Positions 1,006 to 39,810 of a stretch of 64,000 nucleotides of DNA are shown here, piece by piece. This DNA is from Octopus sinensis (Eukaryota). The DNA is taken from the NCBI RefSeq assembly GCF_006345805.1, contig NC_042998.1, forward strand, positions 143,344,001-143,408,000. The letters run 5' to 3'. Each line of letters begins with the position of its first letter. Position 1 is the first letter of the stretch. Made by a program: the position numbers and the translations under genes. The notes beneath the pieces were generated by a model. That model had not been told where the DNA came from and made no database searches. It saw only the letters and a program-made list of their open reading frames with translations.

Positions 1006-1244
1006 TTTATATATGTATGTAAAAATACACCAACTGTAAAAGCAGATTAATGATTGGTCTGGCTGGAGCAATACCTATATCTAGAAACAACATCTACATT
1101 ATACACACTCAGACAAACACACACGCACACACACAACACATCTACTGATACTCTACATTTACACACATTTATGTATGTAAATTACATATATAAATATATA
1201 AAAGTATTTATATACACATACATACATATATATATACATATCTG

Positions 1245-1276
<32 letters not shown>

Positions 1277-1280
1277 CTAT

Positions 1281-1369
<89 letters not shown>

Positions 1370-1587
1370 ATATATATATATATATATTCTGTGTGTGCTT
1401 ATGTAAATAAATCATATATGTAAGCAGACATGTATATCTTTCATATATGTTTGTATATCCATGTATGTATGTATGTATGTATGTATGTATGTAGGTATGT
1501 ATGTATGTATGTATGTATGTATCTATCTATGTGTCTGTCTGCCTGTCCTGTCTGTCTGTCTGTCTTTCTATCTATCTATCTATCTAT

Positions 1588-1634
<47 letters not shown>

Positions 1635-1635
1635 A

Positions 1636-1667
<32 letters not shown>

Positions 1668-1738
1668 CGTAATATATATATGCATGTATGTATGTTTATA
1701 TATATATATGCACATATATAATGTATATATATAATATA

Positions 1739-1785
<47 letters not shown>

Positions 1786-2502
1786 ATATATATATATGCA
1801 GTATGTATGTATATCTTTTCGGTGTTGGTATGATTGTATTTACGCCTATATGTAATTTTTTTTTGCGTGCGCGCGCGTGTGTGTGTTATGTGTATGTTTG
1901 TTTGTGTCTGTGTGTCTGTGTGTGTAGCGGAGCAAAATTTTCGTTTTGATTAATCACATATTAAACTTGTTTCTCAGTCTTTGTGTCTTCGCAGAAACTA
2001 TTTATCACAGAATAAAAATTAAAACGAATGAAAGCTCAATGTTGTGACCCCGATGACGCCATAAATTTGAAGATGTCAAATCGACCTGTTGAACTAAAGC
2101 AACCAGTGTGTTGTTTCACCCCAATCTTTCCTGTTCCTGCAGATATATGATCAGAATTATTCAAGCAATGATCTTTCACTTTAATTACTGTTATATCAGT
2201 TGTATTTTTTTTGTTTTTGTTTTTTGTTTTTTGATAACTCTGGCACTTTACAGTCTAAGAGGAGTCGTAGCACAAGCTTTCTTGTGGCGGCCCTTCTTAG
2301 AAACTTTTTCTCTGAACAGTTTTAACAACTATTTTTTAACGCTTCAAAATGTTTTTATTTTCTCTTAGTTTCATATGCAGTAATCCCAGATGCCCAGATT
2401 CTTTCTCTGCTTTTTTTTTTGGATGATCTCAGAAGTAATGGAGAAATATGATATAGATTCGAAATAATGACAACAACGACAACAACAACAATAATAATAA
2501 TA

Positions 2503-3697
2503 AGGTCATCACTGCATATTTGAAGGGTCTCAAATCAAGACTCAACTCAAGGAACTTTGTGACTGCCATCAACAAATGGGCTGTTGCTGTAGTCCGTTAT
2601 AGTGCACCCATCTTGAAATGGACACAAGCAGAGATTAACCAACTCGATCGCACTACCCGAAAGACAATGATAGTGCATGGTGCCCTCCACCTTAAGGCGA
2701 ATGTATAGATGTTCTACATGAAGAGGGATAAAGCTGGACGTGGGCTGATTAGCGCACGGTAGTACATCAAGAGTGAAAGAAGAAACATGGTAGAATATTT
2801 GGTAAACACCAAACAAACTTGCTACAGTATGCTGCTAATGCAGAAGGATTTACCAAAAATGGGCTTGAGAGTGCTCATGAATTCCGATCACGAACAGCCA
2901 ACGAGAGAAGAAACCCTACTCCGCATCGAATAACATGGTCAATTCCACCGTGAAACTAATAGCCTAAAAGACCAGGAAGCATCATGGAGGTGGCTTAACA
3001 AGGGTGATCTAAAAAAGAATACTGAAAGCCTAATAATCGCTGCCCAGGACCAGGTATTGAATACCAACTCAGTAAAAAAGAATATATACCACACAAGTGC
3101 TACGGACCTCTGCAGGATGTGTTGGAAGAGGGTCGAAAGCGTAACTCACGTTGTTAGTGCTTGTGAAAGTCTTGCGAAGAAAGAGTACAAGTGTAGACAC
3201 GACAAGGAAGCCTAAAACTTCCACTGGCTTCTATACCGTAAGTATGGATAGGAGGTTACGAGTACTTGGTACCAGTATACACCGGAAAAGGTAATGGACG
3301 AAAAAGGGAAGGCAAAAATCCTCTGGGGCTTTGACTTCCAAACAGACATGGTGTTAGAGCACCGAAGGCCGGATATTGTAACATGTAGGAGGGACAAACA
3401 AGAGTGCCTAATAACTGACGTGACAATGCCAGGAGATCAACATATTATCATGAAAGAAAGAGAAAAGACTGATAGATATGGAAACCCGAGAATTGAGATC
3501 GCCAAGATGTGGCGGGAGAATCAAACATAAAGGTTATCCCTTTTGTCATCGGAGCATTGGGTCAATACCACCGAAGCTGAAGAAACATCTGGAAACTTTA
3601 GAAATACCCTTTGACAGACATTAGAACCCCCCACCCCAGTAGACACAATGTCTTCAATCAACAACATCACGATATTGGATAGTGTGTGACGTCTTAA
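2503..3697 (+). mobile_element. 5'-truncated, degenerate RLE-type non-LTR retrotransposon (R4/Dong-like), C-terminal part
   Basis: Broken frames give LKSRLNSRNFVTAINKWAVAVVRYSA, then CRMCWKRVESVTHVVSAC (CCHC knuckle), then ILWGFDFQTD...HRRPDIV...CLITDV (PD-(D/E)xK endonuclease). Flanked by (AAT)n. Homologous to 55175-56738. Confidence 0.85.
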
Positions 3698-3809
3698 ATA
3701 ATAAAATAATGATGATGATAATGATATATGATAATGATGATGATGAGATGATGATGATGATGATGATTGATAATAATAATAATAAAATAATAATAATAAT
3801 AATAATAAT

Positions 3810-3955
3810 ATAATATTTATTTTTATTAACCACAAGGCCTCACATACAAACGCATTGAATGACATACAACAGAAAAGACAAAATCAGGTCGATACAAAGG
3901 GTTTTAGAGCGTGTAAATATAAATAACAATTAAAAATTAAACAAATTCAACTCCC
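3810..3955 (-). mobile_element. 3' UTR remnant of an L1/Tx1-like LINE
   Basis: Minus strand ends ...ccttgtggttaataaaa running into (ATT)n, resembling the 3' ends at about 4010, 48800 and 55080. Confidence 0.5.
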
Positions 3956-4007
3956 AATAATGATGATGATGATGATAACGATGATGATGATGTTGATGAG
4001 GATGATG

Positions 4008-4680
4008 ATTCCTTTATTAATCACAAAGGTTTACATTAAGAAAAACATTATGGACAGTACAAGACAAAAGCAAAGACTGTTTGTGTGTGTGCGTGTGTGA
4101 GTGGGTGTTGTGAGGGTTTTGCGTGTAAACAAAACGAAAAAAATTAAAAGATCAACAATGAGTGATCCTCAATCGGGAGAAGACATTCGAAGGTTCCTCA
4201 TGGAAAAAACCCTTAAAAAAACCCATAGGTACCCTGACTTTTGGGGTAGGTGCCTTTTTTTCTTTCTTTTTTTCCTAATTACAGGCGTATACTCAGGGCA
4301 GGCCTTTTTACCCGTTCCATTCTCGCCACTTTCATTCACCTTTCGGCAAATTGGCTAGAAGACAACACTCCCCTCTCTACCCTTATTTTCCTTTTCAAGT
4401 GAAACTTGAAGAAGTTCATCAGGGATTGGCCAAAGAGAAAAGTGTTTGTCTTCAGCCTCTTCAATCTCGTCCACCATACAACCTCTTTCGCCATGGTCAC
4501 CAGGCATATAAACACAAGCTTCCCTTCTAGGTTCAAGGAAGGTGGCGGGGCGATCTTCACGGTGGATTCAGTTGACAGCCGTAGGTGTTCGTCATAAACC
4601 CACAAGTCAGCAATGCTCGAGCACTGGACGAGTGCATGCAGGACCGCCTCGTCGTCCTGCGCCCATCTCGGACATGCTCT
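4008..4680 (-). mobile_element. 3' fragment of L1/Tx1-like LINE (zf-RVT region + 3' UTR)
   Basis: ORF 4336-4725 RACPRWAQDDEAVLHALVQC...KEVVWWTRLK...FFKFHLKRK matches the ORF2 C-terminus at 47643-48446. Ends AATAAA then (CAT)n. Confidence 0.85.
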
Positions 4681-4800
4681 AACGTAACAAAAAAAAAAAA
4701 AGCAATTGAAAAAATCAACGCCCACTTAAAAGAATTCCAACAAAACAGCAAAAACCAAAACACAAACAATAGACAACTTGACATGAGACGTAACGCCGAA

Positions 4801-9776: not shown

Positions 9777-9876
9777 NNNNNNNNNNNNNNNNNNNNNNNN
9801 NNNNNNNNNNNNNNNNNNNNNNNNNNNNNNNNNNNNNNNNNNNNNNNNNNNNNNNNNNNNNNNNNNNNNNNNNNNN
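9777..9876. other. Assembly gap (100 N)
   Basis: Run of n characters. Confidence 1.
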
Positions 9877-10463: not shown

Positions 10464-11840
10464 TACCTGGCTGATCCTGCCAGTAGTCATATGCTTGTCT
10501 CAAAACTTAAACCATGCAAGTTCATACCGTAAACGAATGGTGAAACCGCGAATGGTTCAGGAACCGGACCTAATCCTCGGGACCGTATTCCTCACCACAA
10601 GGAGAGTGGATAACTGTGGAAATTCTAGAGTTAATACATGCAACTGAAGCTGCGGTGCAGGCCACACTCGGTCGTCGGGCCGAAAATCAGCGTTCGCCTC
10701 AGCTCGCCGCCAGAGCCCTCCCGCCCGCTCAACCGGACCAGGGCGGCGCACCTGCGCTCGCCCCCGGTCATGACGATGCGGTTGGCCTTCCGCACTGGTC
10801 GCGGCGTAAATATTGGAATAAGACCGACGCGTACGGGCCGTCGCAGCAGCCGCCGCACCCCGCGCGCGGGTCGAGGCGTGCGGCAGTTTCACGCTCTTCG
10901 ATTTTGGTGACTCTGGATAACTGTCGCTCCGCTGGCGTTCGCTTCGATGACCCGGCGGGGAGCTTGCGCAGGAAACCATAGTCAGTTCCGGGGGAAGAGT
11001 ATGGTTGCAAAACAGAAACTGAAAGGAACTGACGGAAGGGCATCACCAGGAGTGGAGCCTGCGGCTTAATTTGACTCAACACGGAAAAACTCACCCAGTC
11101 CGGACAACGGTAGGATAGACAGATCGATAGCTCTTTCTCGATTCGGTGGGTGGTGGTGCATGGCCGTTCTTAGTTGGCGATACGTCTGGTTGATCCGATA
11201 ACAACGTGACTCTGGCCCACTAACTAGCGTGCCGATTAGTGCTTTTCTGGCAGCGCAGCGGCGCCGAAACCGTCGTCGGTAGATCCGTGCACGTCCCGCG
11301 CTTGCCGTTTCCACCGCTTTCCATCACGTCAGGCGCTGCGGCCGCGTCCGGCTGCCGCCCCTCCCGGGGCTATCGCGACGTCGTTGCAGAGTCGGTATCC
11401 GGTCGGCTCGGCTCGGCTCGGCTCGCGCGAGCCCAGCAGCGGTACGCCGTCGCGTCCGTGCCGGTCGGTTGGAGAATGCAGCGCTTCTTAGAGAGACGGC
11501 TGGCAGAAAGCCGCACCAAGCGGAGAGATAGCAGGTCTGTGATGCTCTTAGATGTTCGGGCCCACACGCGCGTCACACTGGAGGTATCAGCGGGCGCATT
11601 TACCCCGGCCGAGTGGGTCGGGAAACCGCTGAACCACCTCCCGTGATAGGGATCGGGGCCTGGAACTAACCCCATGAACGTGAAATTCCCGGTAGGCGCG
11701 AGTCATCAGATTGCGTCGATCACGTCCCTACCCTTTGTACATAACGCCCGTCGCTACTACCGATCGGATGGTCCGGTGAGGTCCTCGGATCTGGCCGACG
11801 AGTCCGCTTGCGCGCGGCGGCGTCCCGCGCCGTTGTCGAC
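10464..11840 (+). pseudogene. 18S rRNA: 18S rRNA pseudogene with a large internal deletion and missing 3' end
   Basis: Starts tacctggctgatcctgccagtagtcatatgcttgtctcaaa. Conserved blocks gacggaagggcatcaccaggagtggagcctgcggcttaatttgactcaacacgg, aggtctgtgatgctcttagatg and ccctttgtacataacgcccgtcgctactaccgat. Substitutions occur in universal positions. The central region and the terminal ...gatcatta are absent. Confidence 0.95.
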
Positions 11841-12241
11841 GTGTTCTCTGATGGCTCTCATAAGCCGCGGCCGGGTCCCCTCGCCTTCATCTCATTCGCC
11901 CCTCTAACAGTGCAGTGCAGCGCCGCGCAGCTGTCCGCTCCGATGCCACGCCTGCTCGCTGCCGATCCTGCACGCCCCATCGAGCAGGCGCCCGTCCGAC
12001 AACCAGTGTGCTCGGCCGATGATACAGCGCGCTTTGCGGCTCCACGAGCATTTCATTTTTTCTCAGTTTCCCTTTCTTCTTCTCCCGCATCCACCGGCCT
12101 TCGCGACTAGCGGCAGCAGTCGCGAGCTGTTCTTCTGCTACCGCAGCTAGGTTTTCGTTTCGTTTCGCTTTTTTTCCCTTCGCGGACGACGCGCCGCGTC
12201 CCTTTCCGTATGTCATCGTCAGTAGTAGTAGTAAATATAGA
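11841..12241 (+). other. ITS1-like spacer remnant
   Basis: GC-rich sequence between the 18S helix-44 remnant and the 5.8S. Confidence 0.7.
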
Positions 12242-12400
12242 AACCCTGGATGGGGATCACTTGGCTCGTCTGTAGATGAAGAGCGCGGCTAACCGCGTGA
12301 ACTGATGCGAATTGCAGGACTCACTGAATATCGACACCTCGAATATACATTGCGGCCCCGGGATCCCATCGTCCCGGGGTTTCCATCTGGTTGAGAGGCG
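12242..12400 (+). pseudogene. 5.8S rRNA: 5.8S rRNA (degenerate copy)
   Basis: aaccctggatggggatcacttggctcgtctgtagatgaagagcgcggcta...gaattgcaggac...cattgcggcc matches the 5.8S consensus. ITS2-like GC-rich sequence follows to about 12595. Confidence 0.92.
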
Positions 12401-18873: not shown

Positions 18874-18947
<74 letters not shown>

Positions 18948-20130
18948 TTAACTCATGCCACCCAAAACACATCAAAATAAACATACCTTTCAATTTGGCA
19001 AAAAGAATTTGCACAATTGTGTCTGATAGAACAACTCGGGACCTTCGTCTTCAAGACCTCAAAACAACGCTTATTGAAAGACAATATCCACCCTCACTTA
19101 TCGACGAGGGAATTAAACGTACCAAACAATTGGACATAAAAACACTAAGAACAACAAAACATAACACCACACCTCAACTCAAAACATTACTATTTATATC
19201 AACACACAACCCCAGAAACAGTGAGGCATTCAACACTATTGTGCAAACTCTTCCTTTACTAACCGGAGATCCAAAAATGAACGACTTCCTGAAAACACAC
19301 AACTCATCAAATGCAAAAAACAAGATAAATCGTTAAAGAGACTACTAACAAATGCGAAGCTTTACAAAACAACCACGAAACCAACGGTTGAAAAACGTGG
19401 ACGCCCAAACTGTGGAACCTGCCCCAACCTACTTGAAGGCTCGGATTTCCTTTTCAAACAAGGACAGAGGTTCACAATTAAAACTAGTTTCACTTGTGCC
19501 TCTGAGAACCTAATTCATGTAATAACCTGCTCGGGTTGCGGACACAACTATATTGGACAAACGAGTATGACCTTGAGAAAGAGAACCACTCTACACAAAG
19601 AGCAAATCCTTTTTCCGTAATACAGGCAAATTCCCCTCAGTGAACATATAGAAAAATGTACAGATAACATCAAACCAAATTTCACAGTCTTCCCTTTCCA
19701 CCAGTGCAAAGACACAATCTCTCCACAAGAACGTTTAAATAAAGAAACTTTTTCATTGAAAAATACAGAACACGTCTTAATATGCACGCATAACCAACTT
19801 TTATCTTTTTTACATATTTCAATTCACGATTACATCACAAAACTTGTCTTTGTCTGTACATATGTATTCCCCTCCCATTACCGAAAGCTGAACAGTTATC
19901 TCCCTTACCCATAACAATAACAATAATAACGATAACCAATTACCTCTCATTATTTATCTACTTGTGAAGTCATTCACTCGTGAATTTCATCACACACAAC
20001 ATGGACAAAATTTCTTCTTAAGAAAAAATACATATTCAAATAAGTAAAACATAATATCAGGAATAGCGATAGGGAAACCGGTCGATATATTAAAAATTTT
20101 ATTAAAACTATGTAAGTGTGCGTATTTTCC
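18948..20130 (+). mobile_element. 5'-truncated Penelope-like element (RT thumb, Cys linker, GIY-YIG, 3' region)
   Basis: NSCHPKHIKINIPFNLAKRICTIVS...GRPNCGTCPNL...FTCASENLIHVITCSGCGHNYIGQT. Frameshift and stops present. Related to 26500-30180 and flanked by (TA)n. Confidence 0.92.
20053..20091 (+). ncRNA. Degenerate minimal hammerhead remnant in PLE 3' region
   Basis: atatc-AGGAATA-gcgatagg-GAAA-CCGG-TC-gatat. Perfect stem I and palindromic stem III, but mutated core and stem II. Confidence 0.45.
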
Positions 20131-20141
20131 TTTTTTAATTT

Positions 20142-24448
<4,307 letters not shown>

Positions 24449-24939
24449 AAAGATAACTAAAAAAATGTATGATAGATTGCAGTCAAATCATTCTCTCTTA
24501 CCTGTTTGTGTCTGCCTTCCAAATGCTGTTTTTACTGAGATCTCCCTTTTTAGTAGAAGAAATAGCTATAACCCTTTGACTGCTATTTCTAAATTCGGTA
24601 TGTGGTAAGGCAACTCGTTGCTAACCCTTATTGCTTAGTATTACTTAAATTTTCCTCGAATGAGGCTTTTACATGCCGAAGACTACTTGGTGTAATGATA
24701 ATTTTTCCAAATTAATTAATTTCACCCTTCATTATACGGATAACCATATTTTATCTCAGTAGATGACCACAGCATCTTGTTTTGGCTACACGCGGGTGGG
24801 AAGGGGCTGTTGACACAATCGTTCATTCACAAATTGAATTCGGTGATACCAGTTGCGGATTCTAGCTCGCTCTGATACTGAGTTGAGTTGGTGCCTTCTG
24901 GTATCTCAAAATTCAATATATAATCATTTATGATTATAG

Positions 24940-25049
24940 TATTCTACGCTGAAGAGAAAAGAAGTTTCGGTAAGATAGAATTATTTATATTTAATATTTA
25001 ATTCTTATGCTTTCTAAAAACTTGATTTCGAAACGTACGTCCGTGGATA
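24940..25049 (+). ncRNA. Type I hammerhead ribozyme
   Basis: tattctacg-CTGAAGA-gaaaagaagttt...aaacttgatttc-GAAA-CGTACG-TC^cgtggata. Canonical core and GUC cleavage triplet, predicted cut after 25041. Confidence 0.87.
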
Positions 25050-25537
25050 ACTAAAAAAATGTATGATAGATTGCAGTCAATTCATTCTCTCTTACCTGTT
25101 TGTGTCTGCCTTCCAAATGCTGTTTTTACTGAGATCTCCCTTTTTAGTAGAAGAAATAGCTATAACCCTTTGACTGCTATTTCTAAATTCGGTATGTGGT
25201 AAGGCAACTCGTTGCTAAACCCTTATTGCTTAGTATTACTTAAATTTTCCTCGAATGAGGCTTTTACATGCCGAAGACTACTTGGTGTAATTGATAACTT
25301 TTCTAAATTAATTAATTTCACCCTTCATTATTACGGATAACCATATTTTATCTCAGTAGATGACCACAGCATCTTGTTTTGGCTACACGCGGGTGGGAAG
25401 GGGCTGTTGACACAATCGTTTCATTCACAAATTGAATTCGGTGATACCAGTTGCGGATTCTAGCTCGCTCTGATACTGAGTTGAGTTGGTGCCTTCTGGT
25501 ATCTCAAAATTCAATATATAATCATTTATGATTATAG

Positions 25538-25653
25538 TATTCTACGCTGAAGAGAAAAGAAGTTTCGGTAAGTAAGATAGAATTATTTAATATTTAATAT
25601 TTAATTCTTATGCTTTCCTAAAAACTTGATTTCGAAACGTACGTCCGTGGATA
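25538..25653 (+). ncRNA. Type I hammerhead ribozyme
   Basis: Same motif, predicted cut after 25645. Confidence 0.87.
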
Positions 25654-26140
25654 ACTAAAAAAATGTATGATAGATTGCAGTCAATTCATTCTCTCTTACC
25701 TGTTTGTGTCTGCCTTCCAAATGCTGTTTTTACTGAGATCTCCCTTTTTAGTAGAATAAATAGCTATAACTCTTTGACTGCTATTTCTAAATTCGGTATG
25801 TGGTAAGCAACTCGTTGCTAAACCCTTATTGCTTAGTATTACTTAAATTTTCCTCGAATGAGGCTTTTACATGCCGAAGACTACTTGGTGTAATTGATAA
25901 TTTTTCCAAATTAATTAATTTCACCCTTCATTATTACGGATAACCATATTTTATCTCAGTAGATGACTACAGCATCTTGTTTTGGCTACACGCGGGTGGG
26001 AAGGGGCTGTTGACACAATCGTTTCATTCACAAATTGAATTCGGTGATACCAGTTGCGGATTCTAGCTCGCTCTGATACTGAGTTGAGTTGGTGCCTTCT
26101 GGTATCTCAAAATTCAATATATAATCATTTATGATTATAG

Positions 26141-26252
26141 TATTCTACGCTGAAGAGAAAAGAAGTTTCGGTAAGATAGAATTATTTAATATTTAATATT
26201 TAATTCTTATGCTTTCCTAAAAACTTGATTTCGAAACGTACGTCCGTGGATA
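26141..26252 (+). ncRNA. Type I hammerhead ribozyme
   Basis: Same motif, predicted cut after 26244. Confidence 0.87.
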
Positions 26253-26436
26253 ACTAAAAAAATGTATGATAGATTGCAGTCAATTCATTCTCTCTTACCT
26301 GTTTGTGTCTGCCTTCCAAATGCTGTTTTTACTGAGATCTCCCTTTTTAGTAGAAGAAATAGCTATAACCCTTTGACTGCTATTTCTAAATTCGGTATGT
26401 GGTAAGGCAACTCGTTGCTAAACCCTTATTGCTTAG

Positions 26437-26496
<60 letters not shown>

Positions 26497-26498
<2 letters not shown>

Positions 26499-29400
26499 TG
26501 AGAAAGTTGGTGTGTGAAAGCACGTGGTTGAATATATAGAAAATAGTAAAAAGTGAAAAAACTACAGAAGGCTTGTTTTAAAAGGTTAAAAAATATATTT
26601 GAGTCATTATGTCAGAAGAATGTTATAAATTTTTTTCATACAGTGACATAGTTTTTGAAGAAATTACCGGTTTCGTGTTAACTTTTCAAATTTCTCAAAA
26701 CATCGTGTTATGTCTTCGTTATGAAGTGTAAAGAAGAGTTCCAGGTAAGGGGAGGTAATAAGTGATTTCTTCCGGTGTAAGGGAGATAATCGCTTTATAT
26801 TTCATGTCCCTTTTATTTAATGGGGTGAGTTTCTCTGTATAAGAATGCTTATATTTTTCAATGAAGAATGTTTCCTTGTTTAGTCTAATTTGTGTTGGTG
26901 TTCCAATAGCACATTGATAAAATGGAAAGATTAAAAATTGTGGTAGTAGTTGCTTTGCGCATTTCTCAATATGCTCACTAAAGGGTATCATTCTGTATTC
27001 TGGGAATGCAATCTGTTGTCGATGCAGTGTGCATCTACGTCTGAGTGATAGTCCCGTGGACCCCACGTAGTTTTGGTGGCAGCCCGAGCATCTTATGACA
27101 TAAATTATGTTTTCAGAAGCACAAGTAAAATTAGATTTGATCTTGAATTTTTGTCCCTCTTTGAAGAGGAATCTGATCCTTCTAGAAGGTTTGGGCATGT
27201 TGCGCAGTTTGGTCTACCACATTTTTTTACTTTTGCATCCGTAATTTCAGAAAACAATTTTGCCTTTGTGAGAATCTTTTTAAGTGATTTAGGTTGTTTG
27301 TAGCTTTTAATGATTTTATGTATGTTTAGAATTTCCTTTAATTTGGGGTCCTTATGAAGTATTGGTAAATTCTGGGTGATGATGGAGAAGGCTTCTTTGT
27401 TTCTGGTGTTGTATGTGGATATGTAAGGCAGTATTTTCGGGGAAGGTGTGTTGTTGTATTGAACTTTTCTCAAAGTTTCTATGTCGATTTCTGTTGCACG
27501 TCTGATCCCATCCTCTATGAGTTGAGCTGGGTAGTGTCTGTCAATTAGGGTGTTTTTGAGTTCTTGTAGTCTAAAGTTCCTGGTATTTTGTTCTGACACT
27601 ATTGTGCATATCCTTCTTGCAAGGTGGTAAGGGATGTTTGTTTTAGTGTGTCTTGGGTGGCATGAATAAAAAAGTAGGTATTGTTTAGCGTCTGTGGCTT
27701 TGTAAAAAATGTCTGTTTCTATTTTAAGGTTAATTTTTTTAATTAGTATATCTAAGAATGGAAGCCCCTTTTGGTTGTATTCCATTGTGAACTGTATATT
27801 TGGGTTGATGCTGTTCAATAGGTTTTTGAATTTTAGGAGTTTATCTGTGTTTTCATTCCAGAGTATAAAACAATCGTCCAGGAATCGTTTCCAATTCTCT
27901 TTTATGTATTGAGAGAGGGGGTTTCCAAAGGTCGATAAAGATTCCTGGTAAACAATTATTTCCAGGTAGCCCATTGTTAGGTTCGCAATGACTGGTGCTG
28001 CCCTTGTACCCATAGCAATTCCGGATTTTGACGGTAAAATGTATTGTCAAACATGAAGTGGTTATGTAGGATGAATTCAACCGATTTAGTAATGAATTCT
28101 TTACTGATCCTTTTTGGTATTTCTTCCGGAAATTGGTCCAGCCAGAACTGTATTGCCTCTAGTCCATAATTATGAGGTATACTGGTATATAAATTAACTA
28201 CATCAAATGAAACCATGATTGTTTCTTCCTTGACTTTTTTTGGAAGGTGGTTTAACATATCCAAGTCATCTCTGATATGACTATCGATATGTTTAAGGAA
28301 GGGTTTCAAGGGGATGTCCATAAATAGACTTAATCTGTGTGTTTCACAGGTTGGGCCAGCTACAATGGGTCGTAGTTTTAGGTCCCCCGGGTTAGGTGTG
28401 TGTATGTATGTCTTTGGTGATTTTTTAATGGTTTCATTTATAATTTGGCTTTTATGTATTTTTGGCAGACCATAGAAGAGGCTTGCATTTAAAGTTTGTT
28501 AGAAAATCAATCTCTTTGGTTGTTAGTTCCTTTTCATGGGTTTTAATTAGTGAAGATAGAGTTTTCATTATTTTTTGCGGGGTGTAGTTGGTGATTTTTT
28601 CATATATGTTGATTGTTATCAAGCAAGGAAATTACAAGATTTCTATAGTATGATGTATCCATTATTACAACTGCACTTCCTTTGTCTGCTTCCTTAATGG
28701 TTATATCTTCATCATTTTGAAGTTCTATCTGTTCCTTCCATTGTGCAGTGTTAAAATTTGAGCTAACTTTCTGTTTATGTATAGTATGGTAGGGAAAGTT
28801 CTCAATGTGGCTGCAGAACTCGTCAAGATCTTTATTTCTTCCTCTGTAGGAGATGTGTTCACTTTTGTTCTTGACTAGTGATTCATCTTCAGTATTGAAA
28901 CTGGTTGATGCTTCTGCTAGTCTTAATTTTCTGCAGAATTCTGTTATATTATCCTTGATTTCATTTAGGTTGGCTCTGCGTGGAGTTGGTGTAAATTTGA
29001 GCCCTTTTGAGAGGATGTCAATTTTTATGTTAGAGAGAGGTTTGGTTGAAAGATTGATTATCTTCGGTTTTTCCTTATTACTAGTTTCCAGCCTGTGTCC
29101 TGGTGTCTCTGGTCCCGGGCTAAAAAATGTTGGGTGTAATTTTGTTTGCATGAGTTGTCTGTGAGGTTGTGTGATATTGGTTCGGAGGAACGGTGGTATT
29201 GTTGCCTCCGATTGTTGTGCGTGTGTGGGAATCTATGGTTGTTTTCGTTTGTGGTGTGTGTAAAATTTCTGTATGTGATATATTTTTGTTTCGAATTGCT
29301 TGTATGTGGGATGTTGCTTGACTTAGTGTTTTTTTGCGTTTGTCTTGTGTTCAGTGGGGACCAGTAATTTTGGTTCATGGGGTAGTAGCGACTTGTGTGT

Positions 29401-30180
29401 GGTGTATTTCTTATTCTAGTGTTATTTTGTGCTGTTATGCGGTGGTTGGGTCTGGTATTAGGATGTTGTTGGTGTGTTCTGTTCTTGGTGTAATCTATTT
29501 CATAGACGCGTTGTCTGTCAGCTTGTTCCCTGTTAAGTCTTGCGTGGTTCGAAAATGTTGGTTGTGGGTGATTTCTGTTTCTAGTGTATGGAGGATAGTT
29601 GGGGGGTGGTTTGTGGGTTGTTCGGTTTTTCTTTTTTATTTTTTGTAATTTTCTTAAGAAAGGGATTATCCGTACCCAATTCATTTTTGAAAATTGACGC
29701 ATATCTTTGGAAGAAATCGTTGCTTTTTTCCCAGCGTAGGAGAGAATTTCTTTCTTCCTTTTCACAGATTTCCTTCCAATGATTTAGGGTATTTTCGAGG
29801 GGTTGTCCCTCGGTTCGTTTCTGTATTTCATTATGCATCTCCTCCTCGTCGATGCTTTTATATTTTTCCTCATTTGTGGAGGCCCTAAGTTTTAGTAGTT
29901 CTATTTCTGATTTTAAATTGAATAGAGCTGACCTTTCCCTAATAGTTCTCTGTCCGTCAGGTTCGTTGGGTATTATTTTTATCTGGAATTTGCATGGGAG
30001 GATAATTGGTGTTGAGTTCATCCATCCCTCGTACATATCTGCTTTGTTGGAATTTTTTATCATGTTCCAGAAGGCGAGTTTTCTATTGTGCAGGTTTGTA
30101 TTCCAAATGTTTCCTATTTTTCTTTTTGTTGGGTTGATTTGTGTGCGTATGATGTCCTGGTGTGTTTCATTTGGTGTGTA
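26497..30180 (-). mobile_element. Near full-length Penelope-like retroelement (RT + Cys linker + GIY-YIG, Neptune-like), frameshifted
   Basis: Consecutive minus ORFs: IINLS...ILSKGLKFTPTP, IKEADKGSAVVIMD, SFDVVNLYTSIP, MGTRAAPVIANLTMGYLE, WKRFLDDCF, LPFLDI, KKCGRPNCATC, NIIYVIRCSGCHQNYVGST. Both ends lie in (TA)n. Confidence 0.96.
26658..26696 (-). ncRNA. Minimal type I hammerhead with U3-A8 core variant, downstream of PLE ORF
   Basis: Minus strand: gagaaat-TTGAAAA-gttaacac-GAAA-CCGG-TA-atttctt. 7-bp stem I, 2-bp stem II, palindromic stem III. Confidence 0.7.
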
Positions 30181-30392
30181 TATATATATATAAATGGAAC
30201 AAAAACGCAATAGAGGACGTTAAAACATTCGGACAGATAGATGACACAAAGGCGGACAAGAGAAACAACAATTACAAGGACAGGCAAAAAAAAAAAAAAA
30301 AAGACGGGTCATTCGTGACTTTCTTTCCTCTCCAGAAGTTACGACCATTTCGAGCAGTTACACTCGAGATGATTCGAACTGGTTACATATAC

Positions 30393-30515
<123 letters not shown>

Positions 30516-39170: not shown

Positions 39171-39810
39171 GGAAATTCGGATCTTTACCTTTTGACTGAC
39201 AGATTTAAAAAATAATTTTTTGTAACTAAACACTTTCAAACTTCGGACACTGGTAGAATGTGTCATATAAAACATATTTTACTCTTAGCATTTTTGAGAA
39301 AAAACTTGTATTTACGAAGTAACTTCACATTAAAGTAGTCCTATTTCGGTAATTTCAACCAATGATGTGTATTCAGCTGAATAAAATTACTGCCGTTGTT
39401 TGTCAACAACAACTATCGGCGGTTTATTTTTCATTTGTCACTGTTATTTATGACATCGTTCGTGCATTTGTACTGGTTTTAGCTTGAAGGTTTTAGGGTT
39501 AGGGTTTTAAGGTTAAGGTTGGGGTTTTAGGGTTAGGGTTAGGGTTTCAGGGTAAGGGTTAGGGTTGTCATAAATAACAGTGACAAACGAAAAATACACC
39601 GCCGGAAGTTCTTGCTGACAAACAACGGCAGACATTTTATTCAGCTGAATACATGTCATTGAATGGTTGAAATTACCGAAATAGGACAACGTTAACGTGA
39701 AATTACTTCGTAAATATAAGTTTTTCTAAAAAATGCTAAGAGTAAAAAATGTTTTATATGACACATTCTACCAGTGTCCCAAAAGGTAAAGATCCGGAAA
39801 TTCATTTCCG
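39171..39810. mobile_element. Foldback element with long inverted arms and central degenerate (TTAGGG)n
   Basis: Arm 39178-39455 is the imperfect reverse complement of 39566-39796. The centre (about 39485-39565) is ttagggttaggg-like. Confidence 0.85.

Follow-up and report, generated by a model that had tools for sequence, protein, structure and literature searches.

A head-to-head tandem array of a non-LTR retrozyme between (TA)n tracts has the layout of a PLE-type insertion

The 64,000-nt stretch of Octopus sinensis DNA analysed here (the window) contains two tandem arms of one 600-nt non-coding unit, which lie head to head between (TA)n tracts in the window assembly. The locus shows a PLE insertion signature on a pure retrozyme array. 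The head-to-head feature is real in the assembly and is probably also real in the animal. We consider it likely that a PLE reverse transcriptase was primed twice at a break in a (TA)n tract and that the two cDNAs were then joined. How animal retrozymes enter genomes is a matter of hypothesis, in which help from PLEs is argued from co-occurrence and pseudo-LTR similarity, and the available literature presents rolling-circle copying of circular retrozyme RNA as proposed, not demonstrated. A young, high-copy, polymorphic family with readable ends makes mobilisation countable, by priming sites, stop sites and haplotype periodicity.

The unit is numbered from the base that directly follows the predicted cut (GUC^), which is position 1. 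The array and its edges consist of the following features.

20144..20288, (TA)n tract with the left arm's 3' end (repeat scan)
20287..24448, minus strand, left arm: 6.94 turns, positions 327 to 297, 4162 bp, 7 hammerhead cores
24449..24451, AAA between the two 5' ends: no microhomology, continuation of neither arm
24452..26439, plus strand, right arm: 3.31 turns, positions 5 to 195, 1988 bp, 3 hammerhead cores
After 25041, 25645 and 26244, plus strand, predicted right-arm cuts (hammerhead cores)
25541..25651, plus strand, one type I hammerhead (sequence, fold and circular-unit pair probabilities)
26437..26496, (TA)n tract with the right arm's 3' end (repeat scan)

The left arm is sense on the minus strand and runs from 24448 (position 327) to 20287 (position 297). 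The right arm runs from 24452 (position 5) to 26439 (position 195), and the four bases CGTG are absent at its start. An earlier note on this DNA had given these coordinates, the turn counts and the 4-nt offset from the cut, all of which proved correct on remapping; its observation that both ribozyme-sense 3' ends merge into (TA)n at different phases of the unit (297 and 195) was likewise borne out. The 10 hammerhead cores of the array (7 minus, 3 plus) are spaced 591-604 nt apart, and all 10 internal cut sites are seamless. Each outer arm end overlaps its tract by three alternating A/T bases, and the two outer 3' ends are 102 nt apart in the unit. A target-site duplication is unreadable within (TA)n at the edges of the array.

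In the hammerhead at 25541..25651, stem I is formed by 25541-25546 with 25646-25651, CUGAAGA occupies 25547-25553 and GUC^ ends at 25645; a long stem II, GAAA and a 2-bp stem III inside a palindrome complete the motif. The type I core is present in 10 of 10 copies, with CUGAAGA, the G513-C588 pair (probability 0.97), GAAA and GUC^. In the fold of the circular unit, stem I (positions 1-6 with 500-505) has a pair probability of 0.84-0.94, lower stem II one of 0.91-1.0, and stem II as a whole spans about 76 nt. Stems I and II are predicted, with stem I open, and the local fold reaches a z of -2.24, with 6 of 200 shuffles equally good. Stem III, read from the sequence, has 2 bp and a palindromic tetraloop; its pair probability is 0.04 in the monomer, and the palindrome could pair two copies in a 6-bp duplex of -7.6 kcal/mol. 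This weak stem III matches the weak metazoan hammerhead type described in PMC4209133, which, as far as that account goes, cuts better in multimers and less in monomeric circles. Rfam hammerhead models gave no match at the gathering score or at E up to 10, a miss that we infer to be due to the long stem II; an Rfam match is not itself defining for a type I hammerhead. Self-cleavage at GUC^ is predicted from the complete hammerhead core.

The whole unit is strongly self-paired (z -5.84, 0 of 100 shuffles as good) and non-coding, with a GC content of about 35%. The longest stop-free stretch in the six frames of the circle is 58 codons, and an endless reading frame on the 600-nt circle was rejected. 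The array itself has no RT plus GIY-YIG frame and is therefore not an autonomous PLE. Being tandem, non-coding and self-paired, with a hammerhead per unit, GC under 50% and many dispersed copies, the unit is a non-LTR retrozyme.

The array is flanked by two PLE copies, which lie between further (TA)n tracts.

18874..18947, (TA)n tract bordering the left PLE fragment on its 5' side (repeat scan)
18948..20143, plus strand, left PLE fragment: 5'-truncated, frameshifted, 3' end toward the array
26497..30170, minus strand, right PLE of Neptune type: frameshifted RT and C-terminal GIY-YIG, 3' end toward the array, 5' boundary approximate
30387..30512, (AT)n tract at the right-hand limit of the cluster (repeat scan)

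The left fragment contains the end of the RT region, a linker zinc finger, the GIY-YIG endonuclease and a 3' UTR, and is 62% identical to P0001 over 106 aa. The frames of the right PLE have a DKG motif, a C-x4-C-x2-C linker and 75% identity to P0001, which carries RVT_1 and GIY-YIG. The two copies share 69% DNA identity over about 600 bp. Pfam searches of the raw window frames gave a weak GIY-YIG match in only one of eight, so the PLE identification rests on relatives; where relatives of the flanking PLE protein are named, they come from bivalve molluscs. The flanks fit the Neptune type in their C-terminal GIY-YIG, CX2-5CxxC linker and DKG motif, and their domain order, as read from these frames, appears to be Neptune-type, with the linker being described in the Nematis clade as well in the available text of PMC8557442. 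At E < 0.05, neither of the flanking PLEs resembles the unit. The flanks therefore show that such enzymes target the tract, not that they made the insertion.

Over 18874-30512, four (TA)n tracts separate three insertions, which suggests that one (TA)n tract was hit repeatedly; the two PLEs enclose the array with their tails facing each other. Decayed minimal hammerhead-like motifs, read by eye, occur in the left PLE at 20074-20083 (in 20048-20092, plus strand) and in the right PLE at 26665-26674 (in 26655-26700, minus strand), which lie 60 and 168 nt from the respective 3' ends and contain a different palindrome (ACCGGT). A 216-bp piece with an A run at 30171-30386, between the right PLE and the (AT)n tract, has no match elsewhere in the window beyond microsatellite. 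The window as a whole is microsatellite-rich animal DNA. Degenerate 18S and 5.8S rRNA copies lie at 10464-11897 and 12242-12400, just after a gap of 100 N (9777-9876), and a short interstitial TTAGGG-like repeat at 39493-39566. Within the window, a bacterial promoter scan stayed at chance level and a tRNA search returned none.

The array stretch was present in 20 of the 24 public sequencing runs listed, from 11 studies and nine organisms, and none of these 20 is listed as an RNA run. Contigs of four public runs were aligned on 24412-25080, and the retrozyme family proved to be high-copy, with 1038-4792 contigs aligned per DNA run (these are contig counts, not copy numbers). The unit is near-identical in the nine organisms (64-79% of sampled 31-mers in the best runs), which may reflect shared activity in the recent past or horizontal spread. 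No locus turned up when metagenome, viral and prokaryote contigs were scanned for exact motifs. Among the best 24 of 214 loose contig ends, four carry (AT)n, and all four are 3' ends.

Positions 195 and 297-298, run X16, (AT)n-tailed 3' ends
Position 290, run X12, (AT)n-tailed 3' end
Position about 305, run X2, (AT)n-tailed 3' end (mixed consensus, agreement 0.83)

Two of the four repeat the array's own ends (195; 297-298); the 297-298 end in X16 belongs to a diverged copy, and the 195 contig could derive from the array locus itself. All four sit on AT microhomologies of 3-4 nt, occupying 4 of the unit's 26 such sites. Against these 26 sites, two exact repeats of the array's ends have P = 0.03 and the placement of all four within 10 nt of those ends has P = 0.0014, counts that rest on four ends picked as best supported. 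The best AT microhomology of the unit (7 nt, position 479) is unused among them. The 3' ends had been expected to be permuted at AT microhomologies: they do lie at such sites, but are confined to two zones (195; 290-305) and are not freely permuted.

The copies within the array are homogeneous. The differences between them are mostly single-base indels, and where the first right unit lacks a single base, at six places, the public contigs supply it, so most of these differences are assembly errors. All 10 copies carry one allele at each of the six sites that are polymorphic in the family. At 24900, for example, the other allele makes up 43% of the summed depth in run X6 (P = 0.0035 if units were drawn independently), where summed contig depth is a rough proxy, not an allele frequency. 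The single haplotype, together with the ten seamless cut sites, argues against monomers stitched by template jumps and for one template haplotype.

Homogeneous units would also be produced by a DNA-level history, that is, unequal-crossover expansion followed by inversion or by breakage and rejoining, or two insertions with an intervening deletion. Local unequal-crossover expansion has been proposed for retrozyme tandems in the accessible part of bioRxiv 2026.07.22.740005, and the tract has received several insertions. However, had one array been inverted internally, a second junction would be expected and one of the outer edges would be a 5' end, whereas both edges here are recurrent 3' ends, and no variant block is common to several units of the array. 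We therefore regard such a history as quite improbable.

At the inner junction, the earlier note had taken the AAA to be absent from the unit. The three bases indeed fit the continuation of neither arm; however, TGCTAAA, the 7-mer spanning the junction on its left, is present at another place in the unit, so the AAA need not be untemplated and is possibly templated. On one RNA, the inner-end segments of the two arms would be separated by 131 or 307 nt (modulo 600). The inner end of the left arm, at 327, lies well away from the cut site. The chance of either inner end falling in positions 1-5 is 1.7%, and within 4 nt either side of the cut 3.0%, for a single case noticed after the fact.

Self-priming, in which one cDNA folded on itself and was copied back, is a published reading of palindromic head-to-head PLE junctions (in the text available from PMC3846280) and would account for one haplotype in both arms. 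Here, however, the junction has neither palindrome nor microhomology (AAA stands where GTG is needed), and the right outer end would have to be fortuitous, although position 195 is seen again with an (AT)n tail in run X16. This route is accordingly very unlikely. A missed-adapter palindrome (fold-back read) was ruled out, since the junction is asymmetric, with arms starting at 327 and 5.

Another reading of the junction is an assembly artefact, namely a chimeric long read joining two unrelated arrays of this abundant family. No contig spanning 24449-24451 was found among the best 32 of 7711 pieces from the four public runs, and no strand-change joint among the joints listed in those runs; contigs drop rare branches, so this is no disproof. 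In addition, the region is poorly polished, worst just to the right of the junction, where the six deletions are filled in contigs. The first right unit is the most error-rich, with 7 events against a mean of 2.4 for the others (P = 0.011; 0.10 after correction for nine units). Nevertheless, a fold-back would be symmetric, whereas the arms start at different positions and their flanks are different PLE copies; the same haplotype is found in both arms at 6 of 6 variable sites, and the layout is the expected biological one. We hold an artefact to be improbable.

Previous studies, in the parts available, describe an inverted 5'-truncated copy at the 5' end as the norm for PLEs, with the head-to-head form most frequent and a bias to (TA)n (PMC8557442; PMC3846280). 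On AT-rich DNA in vitro, purified PAc cleaves both strands, extends them and starts reverse transcription at two fixed internal RNA sites, as reported in the available part of PMC11167929. The proposal of the earlier note that two cDNAs were primed from a (TA)n break and then joined is supported by the PLE layout, by this in vitro activity and by the recurrence of both outer ends as (AT)n-tailed 3' ends. The observed layout, ends, homogeneity and recurrence of ends could be explained as follows. The array would have arisen recently, when a non-autonomous non-LTR retrozyme was inserted in trans by a Neptune-type PLE protein that targets (TA)n. The unit would be transcribed, and the RNA could cleave itself at GUC^, as its complete hammerhead core suggests. 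A PLE endonuclease would cut both strands of a (TA)n tract, as may be expected from PAc biochemistry, and each 3'-OH would prime at a preferred internal RNA site, 297 and 195, on 3-nt AT microhomologies. The cDNAs, copied from one haplotype, would then extend over 6.9 and 3.3 units before stopping at 327 and 5, and the joining of their 3' ends with three extra bases would give the head-to-head layout.

The template admits more than one form within the double-priming model. The earlier note had inferred the copying of a circular or multimeric RNA; the identical units fit a circle, but fit a read-through transcript of a homogeneous array too. A circle read round several times has, in our judgement, somewhat less than an even chance, and circle-to-multimer copying is a published model (in the text available from PMC7761336). 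An uncut linear multimer, transcribed by read-through from a homogeneous array and left uncleaved at most of its ribozymes, is only a little less probable. According to the available part of PMC11167929, PAc needs no hammerhead cleavage, and unprocessed RNA is its main substrate in vitro; the partly accessible bioRxiv 2026.07.22.740005 describes 8 of 9 Xenopus retrozyme dimers tested as uncleaved in vitro. In addition, the simplest account of a stop 4 nt from the cut is a linear RNA with a ribozyme-made 5' end. However, the weak palindromic stem III type is reported to cut better in multimers (as PMC4209133 has it, in its available part), so that seven uncut sites in a row would be unusual, and the origin of the donor array is left unexplained.

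The same ambiguity applies to the inner end of the right arm, which the earlier note had placed near a self-cleaved 5' end. The arm does start 4 nt past the cut; however, position 5 lies inside stem I, and a structural stall there explains the stop equally well. Since an intact circle has no 5' end, the RNA copied up to position 5 was either linear or cut again, unless synthesis simply stalled in stem I. We give run-off at a ribozyme-cut end and a stall in stem I about equal weight. A predicted hairpin at positions 284-322 contains the start site of the left arm (297), and that arm stops at 327, 5 nt past the hairpin and 30 nt from its own start position. As a paired base is found no more than 5 nt away from 92% of unit positions, this coincidence is only suggestive, and structural stalling is uninformative as a test.

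That the cut site is used as an end finds slight support in run X2, from another organism, where a joint of 24952 to 25042 connects position 509 exactly to position 1 (one contig, one of three joints listed). The joint removes 89-91 nt of ribozyme core up to the cut; the copy could result from a template switch across stem I or from trimmed and re-ligated RNA. It is the only independent sign, and a hint at most, that cut RNA ends get copied. The free 5'-side loose ends shown are mostly overhangs at reference errors or sequence variants. In run X12, a joint of 24651 to 24625 with 9 letters between records a small rearrangement near position 195, the priming site of the right arm. Meanwhile, run X16 shows clusters of A-to-G changes on the ribozyme strand, at 11 of the 14 A within 30 nt after 24952 and at 6 of 7 A in unit positions 8-16, and seven T-to-C changes at 24735-24787; they fall mostly in one contig (depth 3.6) and are absent from the three DNA runs. 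These changes look like A-to-I hyper-editing of both polarities, as from long double-stranded RNA, X16 being a putative RNA run. On a broader reading, which we put forward as speculative and unlikely to hold in full, each locus of the family would record how a two-headed PLE enzyme reverse-transcribed a circular ribozyme RNA in rolling-circle fashion. Synthesis would begin from the two sides of a (TA)n break at two fixed start sites, continue for several turns and end when the ribozyme re-opens the circle or at the enzyme's binding hairpin, and the head-to-head product would give rise to long double-stranded, A-to-I edited RNA.

The element class, the insertion layout and the rolling-circle hypothesis are all already published. 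In the literature covered, with most subscription papers outside its scope, we found no retrozyme array described as head to head, several turns long and set in (TA)n, with its ends mapped. As characterised in the available parts of PMC7229834 and bioRxiv 10.64898/2026.07.22.740005, non-LTR (animal) retrozymes resemble the array in being non-coding tandems with a type I hammerhead per unit, a GC content below 50%, self-pairing and a location beside PLEs, and tandem copies made by reverse transcription of a circle are the hypothesis published there. The unit of 600 nt compares with typically 170-400 nt, and up to 972 nt, for retrozymes (bioRxiv 10.64898/2026.07.22.740005, available text). Unlike retrozymes as described in the accounts available, the array has a stem II of about 76 nt, no Rfam match, and mapped ends for its two head-to-head arms in (TA)n. 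The accessible portion of PMC4209133 notes minimal hammerheads that occur in a flatworm as pairs on opposite strands.

Neptune and Naiad PLE insertions, as far as PMC8557442 and PMC3846280 are available, share with the array a tandem joined head to head to an inverted 5'-truncated copy, a (TA)n target, the lack of a readable target duplication, and different 3' ends on the two sides. In contrast to these insertions, the array encodes no RT or endonuclease, has many more tandem turns and lacks a palindrome at its inner junction; a PLE tail of 30-40 bp at one end is likewise missing, the outer ends being offset by 102 nt, although the tail is optional in PLEs. With PAc, the Poseidon PLE of anole, the array would have in common that both target strands are cut and extended and that there are two internal starts downstream of the hammerhead (PMC11167929, in its accessible part); positions 290-305 of the unit flank a predicted hairpin loop rich in A and C. 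However, PAc belongs to a different PLE clade and starts without target homology, whereas the array shows AT matches of 3-4 nt, and the available text of that study reports no RNA ends at the hammerhead cut. Finally, the array resembles L1 twin priming, as outlined in the available part of PMC2912911, in its two proposed primers, two proposed cDNAs joined 5' to 5' and outer ends that are both 3' ends. It differs in having no poly(A), a 3-nt insertion without microhomology and non-adjacent segments; junction microhomology in L1 twin priming is, according to the same source, frequent and not universal.
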